A stretch of 64,000 nt of DNA from Thermoanaerobaculia bacterium (GTDB lineage: Bacteria > Acidobacteriota > Thermoanaerobaculia > Gp7-AA8), in contig JBGSYJ010000285.1 in assembly GCA_041750915.1 (NCBI GenBank), positions 848 to 64,847 on the forward strand. Reading direction: 5' to 3'. Position numbers and translations under genes: made by a program. A model generated the notes under the pieces. The model saw only the letters and a program-made list of their open reading frames with translations, searched no databases and had not been told where the DNA came from. Below are positions 43,453 to 50,757 of this stretch, piece after piece (the stretch's first letter is position 1; every line of letters begins with the position of its first letter).

Positions 43453-43643
43453 AGTAGACAGTACACAGTAGACAGTACACAGTAGACAGTAAACAGTAGA
43501 CAGTAGCCCGCCCGACCTCGAGGGATCTTCTCTTTGGGCGCGCCTCGCGGAGGGTTTTTCTTCTGGAGCTGCTATGACTTAACGAACGGGTGGGGCGGGG
43601 GCTACTGTCTACTGTCTACTGTCTACTGTCTACTGTCTACTGT
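43453..43643. repeat. composite inverted repeat built from tandem 7-mers (CAGTAGA)n ... 77-bp spacer ... (TACTGTC)n, copy 1
   Basis: Left arm GTAGACAGTACACAGTAGACAGTA...GTAGCCCGCCCG; right arm CGGGGCGGGGGCTACTGTCTACTGTCTACTGTC... A second copy lies at 50548-50757. Confidence 0.85.
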
Positions 43644-43655
43644 CTACTGAGCCAT

Positions 43656-44300
43656 ATGCGCGTTCGATTCAACGACTTCGTATTCGATGCTGAGCGTCGT
43701 GAACTGACGCGCAGCGGAAGCCTTGTCCATTTGACACCGAAGAGTTTCGATCTTCTTGCCGTGCTGATTGCGAATCATCCGCGAGCGGTGCGCAAGGAAG
43801 AGCTCTACGAGCAGCTGTGGCCCGACACTTTCGTCGAATATGCAAACCTCAACAACCTGATCTCGGAGATTCGGGGCGCACTCGGTGACAGCGAAAGAAG
43901 GATGATCCAGACCAAGACGCGCTTCGGGTTCGCCTTCGCTGCCGTGACCGAGTTGGAAGGCAACGGATCGGCCGCGACGAGGGATCGCCTTTTTCGAGTC
44001 AGCGCCGGTGGTAAGACGTATGAACTGCGGCCCGGGAGAAATCTGATCGGACGCGAGCTGGACTGTGCGATCGTGATCGACTCGCCTTCAGTCTCGCGCT
44101 ACCACGCGGTCATCGAAGTTGCCGGACCCGTGGCAATGATCGAAGATCTCGGCAGCAAAAACGGCACCTTCGTCCGGGCGCATCGCATCACGGCGGCTGT
44201 CGAATTGCGCGATCGAGACGAGATTGAAATCGGCCGCACCCTTTTGCGCTTCCGGATCTTCGACCGCCGTGCGGCCACGGTGAGCGACCCGAGACGCTGA
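43656..44300 (+). CDS. transcriptional regulator: OmpR/PhoB-type winged helix (trans_reg_C) fused to FHA domain
   Basis: The N-terminus resembles the ToxR/CadC DNA-binding domain (VRFNDFVFDAERRELTR...VHLTPKSFDLLAVL). The C-terminal FHA carries GRNLIGRE...SRYHAVIE...NGTFV. The listed ORF start is inside the heptamer repeat. Confidence 0.75.
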   Translation: MRVRFNDFVFDAERRELTRSGSLVHLTPKSFDLLAVLIANHPRAVRKEELYEQLWPDTFVEYANLNNLISEIRGALGDSERRMIQTKTRFGFAFAAVTELEGNGSAATRDRLFRVSAGGKTYELRPGRNLIGRELDCAIVIDSPSVSRYHAVIEVAGPVAMIEDLGSKNGTFVRAHRITAAVELRDRDEIEIGRTLLRFRIFDRRAATVSDPRR

Positions 44301-44428
44301 ACGGGGGCGCCAGGGGTCGGAGCGTGGCGTTTGCCATCGGGTTGGATACAGTTCAGTTGCAGAAGAGCCCCGGGAAGCCCGCAGGCGGTATGATCCGAAG
44401 ACGATGCTTCTGCATCGCGGAGGTTCCG

Positions 44429-48625: not shown

Positions 48626-48690
48626 CACGCTGCTGACGCCGCCCTGCTCGACGCATCGCAGCAAGTACGAGAGCATTGAAACACCGGCGC

Positions 48691-50442
48691 TCAGTACCCG
48701 AGAATCAGCTCGATGCGCCGGTTCCTCGCGCGGCCCTCCGCGCTGTCGTTCTCGGAGATCGGCACCAGCTCACCGCGCCCTATGCTTGTGATGCGCGCGG
48801 GATCGATGCCGGCTGTGACGAGCAGATCCCTGAGGCCATCCGCGCGGGCCTGAGACAACTGCAGGTTGTCGTCTTCGCCCCCGCTCGAGTCGGTGTGACC
48901 CTCGATGGCGACTCGGACGTCGGGGTTCGCCGCCAGTTGCTCGGCAATCCGTTGCAGAACACCGCGGCTCTCCCAGCTGATCTGGCTCCGTCCGGTTCTG
49001 TAGAAGAGCCCTGGAATCGTCACGACCAATCCCCGCGCCTCGAAGCGTGCTTCGACGACCGCTGCGAGCGACCGCTGGATCGATGCAAGACGTTCCTGCT
49101 GGCTCGTACGCCGCTGGCGCTCCTCTCGCACTTTAGCCAGCTCTCCTTCGGCCGTCGTCACCCGCTCTCGCAGTTTCCTGCTCTCCGCGCTGGTTCCGCT
49201 CAGGGTCACGCTGACGTCTGCGAGAAGCTTCCTGTATGAGTCTTCGAGATCCCTGCGAAGACGTTCGCCCTCATCCCGTTCGCCCCGCAGCCGCTCGTTC
49301 TCGATTTCGCGCTCCGTCAAGGCACGCGAGACCGCCACGAACTGCGTACGCTCCTGAGCCAGGGTCTGCTCGAGCCGGACGACCTCCGGATGCTTCGATG
49401 GTTCGACCGCGGCCGCGACTGTGGTGAGGACGATTCCCGCGGGAACCCTCAAGACGAGTACGGCCAGCAGGAATCCAATGGTGGCCATTGCCACCCGCAT
49501 GCGGCGGGCACGAAGCAGGCCGGCGAATGCAGGCTTCCGTTTGCCCGGAGTAGCGATCGATGCAGCCTCGAAGAGGTCGAGCGCCAGATCGCGTGCCGAA
49601 TCGTAACGCTGCTCGCGATCCTTGGCGAGGCATCGATCAAGGATGCGTTGAAGCATCGCGTTGAGGCGCGAGCCGCCGACAGAGATTCGGGGAGCTGGCC
49701 GATGAACGATGTTGTGCATCGTTTCCGCATTCGTCGAACCGGCAAAGGGAGCCTGCCCGGTTATCGACTCGTGGATGATGCATCCGAGCGAGAAAATGTC
49801 GGTTCGGTGATCAAGCGCAAAGCCTTCGATCTGCTCAGGCGACATGTAGCCGACTGTTCCCAGCAGTGTTGACGGCTCGGTGAGCGTCCTTCGTCCCGAG
49901 GGGGATCGCACCTCGTCGCTATGCTGCACGCCCACCAGTTTTGCGACGCCGAAGTCGAGGACTTTCGCATGGCCCTCGGACGTGATCATGATGTTGTCGG
50001 GCTTGAGGTCGCGATGGACGATCCCTCGCGCATGCGCCTTGCCGAGCCCTTCGGCGACGCGGCCCAGCTCTGCAAGCGTCGACGCGAGCGGAGGCTCCTC
50101 CCCCAGCCAGACATCGAGCGTTGCTCCCTCGATGTACTCCATTGCAATGTAATGGATCACCGAAACGTGGCCCGACGCGTCGACGACCGGCGCTTCACCC
50201 ATCTCGTAGATCGTCACGATCGAAGGATGATTCAGAGCGGAGGCAGCTTTCGCTTCAGTGATGAAGCGTTGCACGCGGAGAGGATCGGACGTGAGACCCG
50301 TCGGCAGAATCTTGATGGCGACGAGTCGGTCGAGCTCGACGTCGAGGGCAAGGTAGACCTCGCCCATGCCACCGGCGCCCAGAAGCTTCCGGATCTGGTA
50401 GCGTCCGACGGACGACTCTTCCGCTAACGATGGCCCGGTCAT
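48691..50442 (-). CDS. Ser/Thr protein kinase fused via TM segment and coiled coil to a C-terminal OmpA/MotB-like peptidoglycan-binding domain
   Basis: Kinase motifs GAGGMGEVY, HRDLKPDNIM and DFGVAKL; a central TM helix; C-terminal OmpA-C-like block VAIEGHTDSSG...RNRRIELIL. Strong GGGAGGAG ribosome-binding site. Confidence 0.8.
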   Translation of the reverse strand: MTGPSLAEESSVGRYQIRKLLGAGGMGEVYLALDVELDRLVAIKILPTGLTSDPLRVQRFITEAKAASALNHPSIVTIYEMGEAPVVDASGHVSVIHYIAMEYIEGATLDVWLGEEPPLASTLAELGRVAEGLGKAHARGIVHRDLKPDNIMITSEGHAKVLDFGVAKLVGVQHSDEVRSPSGRRTLTEPSTLLGTVGYMSPEQIEGFALDHRTDIFSLGCIIHESITGQAPFAGSTNAETMHNIVHRPAPRISVGGSRLNAMLQRILDRCLAKDREQRYDSARDLALDLFEAASIATPGKRKPAFAGLLRARRMRVAMATIGFLLAVLVLRVPAGIVLTTVAAAVEPSKHPEVVRLEQTLAQERTQFVAVSRALTEREIENERLRGERDEGERLRRDLEDSYRKLLADVSVTLSGTSAESRKLRERVTTAEGELAKVREERQRRTSQQERLASIQRSLAAVVEARFEARGLVVTIPGLFYRTGRSQISWESRGVLQRIAEQLAANPDVRVAIEGHTDSSGGEDDNLQLSQARADGLRDLLVTAGIDPARITSIGRGELVPISENDSAEGRARNRRIELILGY

Positions 50443-50547
50443 GAGTGGCAGTTCTCCTCCCGAGTACGGATCTCCGACTTACAGGTTGCGCGAAGCGCGG
50501 GCAGAAGTCATAGGAGTGGCGGAGTGTTTGAAGCTTTGTTGCAGGAA

Positions 50548-50757
50548 GTAGACAGGAGACAGTAGACAGTAGACAGTAGACAGGAGACAGTAGACAGTAG
50601 ACAGGAGACAGTAGCCCACCCGCCCCGGGTACTGGCTCGCTCCTCCGGCGTTCCAGCTGGCAGGGAAGGCTTTACAGCAAACTGCGTCTCCCGACGGGTG
50701 TGTTCGCTGAAGGGACGGGCGGGCTACTGTCTCCTGTCTACTGTGTACTGTCTACTC
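50548..50757. repeat. composite 7-mer inverted repeat, copy 2 ((GTAGACAG)n...82-bp spacer...(TACTGTC)n)
   Basis: Same architecture and the same GCCC(A/G)CCCGCCC / GGGCGGGC junctions as copy 1. Confidence 0.85.

Follow-up and report, generated by a model that had tools for sequence, protein, structure and literature searches.

In many bacteria, heptanucleotide repeats form the most abundant class of long simple sequence repeats (Mrazek 2007, as cited in PMC4679880), and slipped-strand mispairing has been proposed as the cause of their excess (Mrazek 2007, as summarised in PMC4679880 and PMC4692102). Arrays of TAACTGA occur in Beggiatoaceae, Cyanobacteria and Bacteroidetes. Nearly all of them are direct, and the repeat sets of the BOGUAY genome include only one 'indirect repeat' (MacGregor 2015, PMC4679880). 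A paired arrangement has been described in Xanthomonas campestris and X. axonopodis, with 70–75 convergent inverted pairs of GGGAATC arrays per genome (Rehm et al. 2015, PMC4692102). These arrays are mostly intergenic, lie near the end of the upstream open reading frame (ORF) and are dispersed round the chromosome; their unit number varies between related genomes, and the single or paired type is usually preserved. Here we describe two elements of this general design, E1 and E2, in a 64,000-nt stretch of a Thermoanaerobaculia genome (Acidobacteriota; contig JBGSYJ010000285.1), referred to below as the window. An earlier note on this DNA had pointed to the two repeats and to the 6.9-kb block of signalling genes between them. 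We conclude, with a probability of about 80%, that E1 and E2 are separate copies of dispersed intergenic palindromes with convergent heptanucleotide arms, which read N-CAGTAG inward from either side. The feature is real and statistically striking, yet it represents an ordinary case of a repeat type already known; neither its unit nor its occurrence in this lineage has so far been described.

The Xanthomonas pairs are the closest described case. Like them, E1 and E2 consist of tandem heptamers in convergent, fixed polarity, are intergenic and belong to a dispersed family, in which length changes by whole units (seen in the pair of loci L018/L114, below). The Xanthomonas unit, however, is G-rich and has been studied for G-quadruplex formation, whereas CAGTAGA has no G-tracts; the host phylum differs as well, and the Xanthomonas paper (PMC4692102) describes neither G/C clamps nor recurring core families. 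The elements also resemble the heptameric long simple sequence repeats (LSSRs) of prokaryotes, such as the cyanobacterial short tandemly repeated repetitive (STRR) sequences and TAACTGA (PMC4679880). They have in common the dominant period of 7, the intergenic position, insertions and deletions of 7 nt, a frequent location a few nucleotides upstream of start codons, a unit common to distant phyla, and breaks in short-read assemblies. Those LSSRs are mainly single direct arrays, whereas in Acidobacteriota the palindrome of paired arrays with fixed polarity is the rule (94%).

Architecture of E1 and E2

Both elements follow one plan: an (AGTAGAC)n array, a G/C clamp, a core, a complementary clamp and a (CTACTGT)n array (Table 1). 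Reading of the sequence, Tandem Repeats Finder (TRF) and an inverted-repeat search all found the two composite inverted repeats of tandem heptamers where the earlier note had placed them. The arms are 81–97% complementary according to the inverted-repeat search, and in E2 a CTCCTGT variant in the right arm mirrors the AGGAGAC unit of the left arm position for position. The two-unit pattern CTACTGTCTACTGT, with up to two mismatches, has 23 matches in the window against 0.04 expected, all of them inside E1 or E2. Each element is predicted to fold into a single long hairpin, with −117.9 kcal/mol (z = −10.2) for E1 and −110.2 kcal/mol (z = −6.5) for E2.

The two cores do not align in either orientation, in agreement with the description of the spacers as unrelated, so that arms and clamps are the only common parts. 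The spacer length had been put at 77–82 bp; we measured 95 nt (E1) and 109 nt (E2) between the arrays, and 73 and 85 nt between the clamps. Clamps of the form GCCCGCCC/GGGCGGGC had been proposed, which is approximately correct, but the exact GGGCGGGC is present in just one of the four clamps. It had also been stated that E1 and E2 share the same orientation. Because the arms are palindromic and the cores unrelated, this statement is uninformative. A GTAG abuts the clamps, and the clamp stretch common to E1 and E2 comprises merely 8–14 nt of G/C. Its motif CCCRCCCKCCC was found three times in the window against 0.37 expected; as one in 100 shuffles reached three, we judged it not enriched. The clamp junction GACAGTAGCCCRCCCG was also searched for in metagenomes; there were at least 120 matches, and none of those listed adjoined a heptamer array. 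These are chance matches, because a 16-mer was queried in a very large database.

At gathering thresholds, Rfam gave no matches on the window, and a permissive Rfam search of E1 and E2 yielded only sub-threshold matches to miRNA-precursor models, that is, to generic long hairpins. A simple scan for promoters and terminators detected no consensus promoter and no convincing terminator in either element (one weak terminator match lies within an arm, none in E2). Upon reading the flanks, we found no direct repeat indicative of a target-site duplication around E1 (...tgggggAGTAGAC / CTACTGagccat) or E2 (...gcaggaAGTAGAC / GTCTACTcaaaaa).

Both elements lie between divergently oriented genes, as had been noted before. 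E1 sits 100 nt from the start of an ORF at 43352 (minus strand) and 6 nt 5' of the ATG (43656) of a gene encoding a winged helix-turn-helix (wHTH)-FHA protein, and E2 sits 104 nt from a kinase start at 50442 (minus strand) and 42 nt 5' of the ATG (50799) of a DUF1287 gene.

The same heptamer in other genomes

We scanned one genome per species for exact matches to (CTACTGT) x 2.9; the figures on pairs, gene context and density that follow come from the matches listed. Other genomes matched the query in at least 115 stretches. The matches listed were concentrated in Pyrinomonadaceae and other metagenome-assembled genomes (MAGs) of Acidobacteriota and scattered over many other phyla. All 76 close pairs had the order (ACAGTAG)n-core-(CTACTGT)n. 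In the Acidobacteriota, 143 of 152 evaluable arrays (94%) were paired; in other phyla, single arrays prevailed and 15 of 48 were paired. The reverse configuration had no occurrence among the evaluable arrays of either set. To the question of the earlier note, whether such arrays always form inverted pairs, the answer is that they nearly always do in Acidobacteriota, but each pair is one self-contained element. The elements consist of arm, core and arm, have a fixed polarity and stand in intergenic regions of every type.

Gene context was assigned with a simple codon-usage gene caller, which reproduces the genes of the window. Among 63 placeable pairs, 38 lay between tandem, 14 between divergent and 11 between convergent genes. 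The baseline of all intergenic gaps was 394, 93 and 94, respectively, and the paired elements are thus unbiased. Arms beside gene 3' ends were a median of 3 nt away from the stop codon (n = 67); the stop codon of the gene was inside the CAGTAGA-family array in 19 cases and flush with it in 11 (30 of 67 together). The median distance of arms beside gene 5' ends was 31 nt. Beyond the element that had brought in each listed locus, we counted one further element per 29 kb, and the window has two in 64 kb. With this density, the chance of a neighbouring element within 7.1 kb is about 0.39, and therefore a distance of 7 kb between two copies calls for no particular explanation.

A search of 18 related loci against Rfam gave a tRNA as the sole match. 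A tblastn search with an approximate RayT query, which is a weak test, matched nothing in the window, nor in the fetched loci, which amount to about 2 Mb. In the literature that we searched, there was no description of a CAGTAGA-armed palindrome family in Acidobacteriota.

In Pyrinomonadaceae, the cores form recurring families that are found at many loci in both orientations, with two main types. Type A is a conserved sequence of 58 nt with 29 copies at as many loci in several species, in either orientation. Its consensus is GCTCCGC..TGACGC.GACA..TTCG..GAAGGTTTT, or, as a spaced motif, GCTCCGC-N8-GYTGACGCYGACA-N-CGGACGGTTCG-N-GAAGGTTTTT. We considered a structured RNA as the identity of this core and rejected it, since RNAalifold found no consensus structure on either strand; relative to genes, the two orientations were observed 11 and 7 times, which is no bias. 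Type B (15 copies) consists of an A-tract, a GC hairpin and a T-tract. Of its 12 placeable copies, 8 are flanked by convergent genes (baseline 16%), so that it is very probably a bidirectional terminator in Pyrinomonadaceae. A different filling was seen in an Anaerolineae MAG (L030 3392-3976, DAOUFX010000114.1), where a 120-aa gene for a 23S-rRNA-intervening-sequence (IVS) protein (PF05635, E = 2e-35) stands between (ACAGTAG)n and (CTACTGT)n arms that are separated by 540 bp.

The arms gain and lose whole 7-nt units; at orthologous sites they are kept even where another core has taken the place of the first. Between L018 and L114, from MAGs about 93% identical over the compared stretch, an array differs by exactly one 7-nt unit, and the arms of L033 and L061 have 6 versus 5 and 8 versus 5 units. 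At the species level, flanks and arms were retained at orthologous sites; the core was kept in one comparison (L029/L110) and replaced or resized in three (L033/L061, L047/L089 and L039/L083). The unit numbers of the two arms of an element are weakly correlated (Spearman 0.23), and mirrored variant units amount to 17.7% within elements versus 12.6 +/- 1.8% between elements. We rejected co-evolution of the arms as a stem, an effect that is weak by both measures.

Table 1. Positions of heptamer elements and their parts in the window and, where a locus number is given, in related loci
Feature	Position	Sequence or size	Remark
E1, whole element	43453-43650		
E1, left arm	43453-43506	AGTAGAC x 7.7, including variants AGTACAC and AGTAAAC	TRF period 7
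E1, left G/C clamp	43507-43514	CCCGCCCG	immediately 3' of a GTAG; pairs with 43588-43601 in the predicted fold
E1, core	43515-43587	73 nt	
E1, right G/C clamp	43588-43601	GGGTGGGGCGGGGG	
E1, right arm	43602-43650	CTACTGT x 6.9	all units perfect
E2, whole element	50547-50756		
E2, left arm	50547-50614	AGTAGAC x 9.7, including AGGAGAC variants	TRF period 7
E2, left G/C clamp	50615-50626	CCCACCCGCCCC	
E2, core	50627-50711	85 nt	
E2, right G/C clamp	50712-50723	GGGACGGGCGGG	
E2, right arm	50724-50756	CTACTGT x 4.7	
Type A core	L005 4386-4443		example
Type A core	L049 1075-1132		example
Type A core	L102 3511-3566		example
Heptamer hairpin, other unit	13048-13218	(GGTTCTG/AGTTCTG)n, clamp CCCACCCTCCC, loop, clamp GGGGTGGGAGG, (AACCCAG)n	
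Heptamer hairpin, other unit	23487-23580	(GAATGTT)n, 15-nt loop, (AACATTC)n	arms 39 nt, 90% complementary
Unpaired heptamer array	51573-51605	ACTCACA/ACTCAGA	contains the stop (TGA 51589-51591, minus strand) of gene 51589-52554(-)
Unpaired heptamer array	56063-56094	GTGAAGA/GTGAAAG	contains the TGA stop (56078-56080) of gene 54941-56080; followed by hairpin 56102-56204
GCGGAAT pair	L037 965-1116		
GCGGAAT pair	L038 7392-7489		
GCGGAAT pair	L045 4642-4934		
GCGGAAT pair	L061 3770-3898		

Weighing the explanations

If E1 and E2 are separate copies of a dispersed palindrome family, their history can be pictured as follows. Heptamer arrays would arise and be resized by slipped-strand mispairing, and the inverted partner would stay similar mainly through drift of both arms round the same consensus, with little hairpin-templated copying. 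The homology of the arms would allow cores to swap between copies by recombination. The genes on either side of E1 and of E2 are divergently transcribed, so that any effect would be on the 5' side. It could come from a hairpin of about 200 nt or a (CUACUGU)n leader tract directly before the wHTH-FHA start codon; alternatively, an element might form a cruciform or structural spacer that separates the two divergent promoters. Elements of this type may also be neutral or selfish DNA. The 6.9-kb signalling block, we infer, is ordinary chromosomal DNA placed by chance between two copies.

Several points weigh against the reading as dispersed palindromes. For this organism, the copy number is an extrapolation from a single 64-kb window together with other genomes, and any effect of the elements on neighbouring genes is one that we infer. 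Variant units are mirrored in the opposite arm only a little more often within elements (17.7%) than between elements (12.6%), and selection for a perfect stem is therefore not evident. Moreover, the fixed polarity and the arms flush with stop codons are beyond slippage alone and hint at a sequence-specific process. Together with the GTAG tag and the swapping of cores, these two properties suggest a bolder view, to which we give a rather low probability: the N-CAGTAG palindromes might be a lineage-wide, actively maintained system in Acidobacteriota, with arms that serve as portable modules for recognition or homology. Either a Y1/HUH-type enzyme would then read the GTAG beside the core, or the arms would drive recombinational exchange of the cores. 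Terminators, the 58-nt core and small genes such as that for the 23S-rRNA-IVS protein would be swapped between intergenic sites, and genes enclosed by two copies, as by E1 and E2, might now and then be inverted or deleted through them.

A related explanation takes E1 and E2 as two insertions similar to MITEs (miniature inverted-repeat transposable elements) or REPINs, with the heptamer arms as terminal inverted repeats, GTAG as a tag and a transposase acting in trans (for example a RAYT-type Y1/HUH enzyme). We consider this unlikely, although it has a good deal in common with what was observed. Repetitive extragenic palindromes (REPs), bacterial interspersed mosaic elements (BIMEs) and REPINs are likewise abundant intergenic palindromes with GTAG 5' of the hairpin on both strands, form long hairpins from inverted doublets, and coincide in some copies with terminators (PMC3733652, PMC3116915). 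The fixed polarity and the GTAG 5' of the core on both strands match GTAG-tagged REPs (PMC3733652), the cores of types A (29 copies) and B (15) recur at many loci in both orientations, arms that are flush with or contain the upstream stop codon are what targeted insertion predicts, and the Anaerolineae copy carries a gene between its arms. However, E1 and E2 have no conserved stem of 20–40 bp in common, and their arms are tandem heptamers instead of a single palindromic unit. A shared core, as seen in the Pyrinomonadaceae types A and B, is not found in E1 and E2, whose cores are unrelated, and no target-site duplication is visible at either. Many heptamer units without GTAG build the same architecture, sister elements of E1 and E2 among them, and elements are retained at orthologous sites across species with no presence/absence differences. 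The tblastn search, weak as it is, gave no RAYT in the window or the loci of about 2 Mb. The earlier note had suggested, among other things, a REP family specific to this genome. A REP-like repeat family comes close, but the same design is found across many MAGs of Acidobacteriota and in other phyla, so that it is not specific to this genome.

The same note had also envisaged that the repeats mark the boundaries of a mobile or invertible 6.9-kb cassette or serve in its recombination. Two copies with the same unit and similar clamps do bracket the block. The right arm of E1 and the left arm of E2 are inverted repeats of 50–68 nt, through which homologous recombination could in principle invert it, and the left arms are direct repeats, through which it could be deleted. 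A short-read contig of 6955 bp (L116, Logan contig, SRR28170462) corresponds to 43621-50575 of the window; its two ends fall within the E1 right arm and the E2 left arm, about 29 nt deep in each. Yet these ends are not evidence of excision, because k-mer (de Bruijn) assemblers break at arrays of about the k-mer length or longer. How short-read assemblies orient the block depends on reads that span a whole arm, since these two arms are reverse complements of each other. The composite element is found singly and self-contained at very many unrelated loci, not specifically at the ends of segments, and the density of elements accounts for the spacing of E1 and E2. In addition, Pfam detected no recombinase or integrase among the four block genes and five flanking ORFs scanned, no compositional shift is seen across the block, its GC content is unremarkable, and relatives at 53–55% protein identity share only two of the four genes, and one of these relatives has no arrays nearby. 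Integron attC sites offer a partial parallel, being imperfect palindromes with 7-bp outer motifs and a variable centre that lie directly after stop codons and bracket genes. Here, however, there is no integrase and no cassette array, the spacing is about 30 kb and not 0.5–1 kb, and the flanking genes are ordinary chromosomal ones in all orientations. The cassette therefore appears very improbable. We hold it to be just as doubtful that E1 and E2 are functional RNA or DNA signals, be it terminators or attenuators, RNase III processing stems or an array of sites bound by a regulator of the flanking signalling genes. The hairpins are predicted to be very stable, the type B cores favour convergent gaps (8/12 versus 16%), and the right arm of E1 ends 6 nt before a start codon, comparable to TAACTGA arrays in Beggiatoaceae (PMC4679880). 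But E1 and E2 lie between divergent genes, which leaves no gene 3' end to terminate; the scans gave no convincing terminator or promoter in them and Rfam no match above threshold. Furthermore, the type A core has neither a consensus RNA structure nor an orientation bias (11 versus 7), compensatory mirroring between the arms is weak, and no candidate binding protein was identified.

For annotation, this means that composite inverted repeats in Acidobacteriota are to be read as dispersed heptamer-armed palindromes, not as cassette ends. For assembly, it means that short-read assemblies break at these elements, which are potential sites of misassembly or of real rearrangement. The literature searched contains no description of the 94% pairing, the fixed polarity or the position of arms flush with stop codons, and slippage alone does not account for them. 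The same is true of the retention of the arms while the cores turn over, and of the use of one unit across phyla. Heptamer-armed palindromes are thus a tractable case for studying the origin of convergent heptamer arrays.

The enclosed genes and other repeats

The gene content given for the block in the earlier note was confirmed: it encodes the wHTH-FHA protein, a wHTH-TPR protein, an alpha/beta-hydrolase fused to a metallo-beta-lactamase (MBL) domain, and a serine/threonine protein kinase (STPK)-OmpA fusion. Across these four genes and the five flanking ORFs, Pfam identified wHTH-FHA, wHTH-TPR, hydrolase-MBL, two protein kinases (one of which is the OmpA fusion), DUF1287 and two dehydrogenase E1 components. 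The nearest distinct relatives of the hydrolase-MBL protein are 53–55% identical, and those that are named are called Thermoanaerobaculia (Acidobacteriota); no close copy was found among 5.8 billion protein clusters. Two relatives are on long contigs (L117 and L119), and only the pair of wHTH-TPR and hydrolase-MBL, two of the four block genes, is common to them. The pair is divergent in one of the two. In L117, the protein encoded upstream of the pair is not homologous to wHTH-FHA, and no period-7 arrays occur in the 22-kb locus. L119 has heptamer hairpins built on other units, one of them directly 3' of its hydrolase gene.

The block also contains what had been called a 13-mer array, in the convergent gap between the hydrolase-MBL and STPK-OmpA genes (48329-48352 and 48488-48619). 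This array is irregular, with tandem CGACGGCTTACC(G) units among which GGACTGGAGCTGCGACCC is interspersed; TRF reported periods of 11, 16 and 30 for it, and it is unrelated to the heptamer arms.

Long tandem arrays with periods of 4–15 in the window nearly all have period 7 or its multiple 14, and the window as a whole is rich in extragenic palindromes. Besides E1 and E2, it has two hairpins and two unpaired arrays built on other heptamers (Table 1). The hairpin at 13048-13218 begins 1 nt past the stop codon (TGA 13044-13046) of gene 11541-13046. In about 0.85 Mb of fetched loci, we counted 138 arrays of other units, with 24 inverted pairs. These pairs bear on the idea that polarity is set by the inward strand, (ACAGUAG)n, giving stop codons in all three frames. 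All four pairs of the window fit this idea; of the 24 other-unit pairs, four have such stops on the inward strand only, three on the outward strand only, eleven on neither and six on both, and we rejected it as a general rule. A second recurring convergent pair of the same polarity, (GCGGAAT)n...(ATTCCGC)n, was seen in Nitrospirae and Pyrinomonadaceae genomes.

Three further repeat families were observed. A MITE-like palindrome of about 175 bp is present in four copies (2692-2865, 15407-15572, 27650-27826 and 37303-37472), all outside the long ORFs of a mechanical ORF list. Its termini are CTTGTCATCCCGAGC...GCTCGGGATGACA, its arms are 60–71 nt long, and the mean column identity is 84%. Together with its complement, the motif GTCATCCTGAGCG(NN)AGCGAAGGATC is the basis of a palindrome at 51466-51554, which adjoins the array at 51573-51605. 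In L119, from a Thermoanaerobaculia relative, this motif recurs as the inner inverted repeat of an element with heptamer arms (12392-12640) directly downstream of the hydrolase-MBL gene, which points to a second repeat family common to the two genomes. Finally, a REP-like family, ATGTGGCAGGGCC(TCGGAG/TTCCCA)GGCCCTGCC, occupies two intergenic sites (34730-34913 and 54891-55044), where it forms perfect 30-nt inverted repeats 94–124 nt apart.

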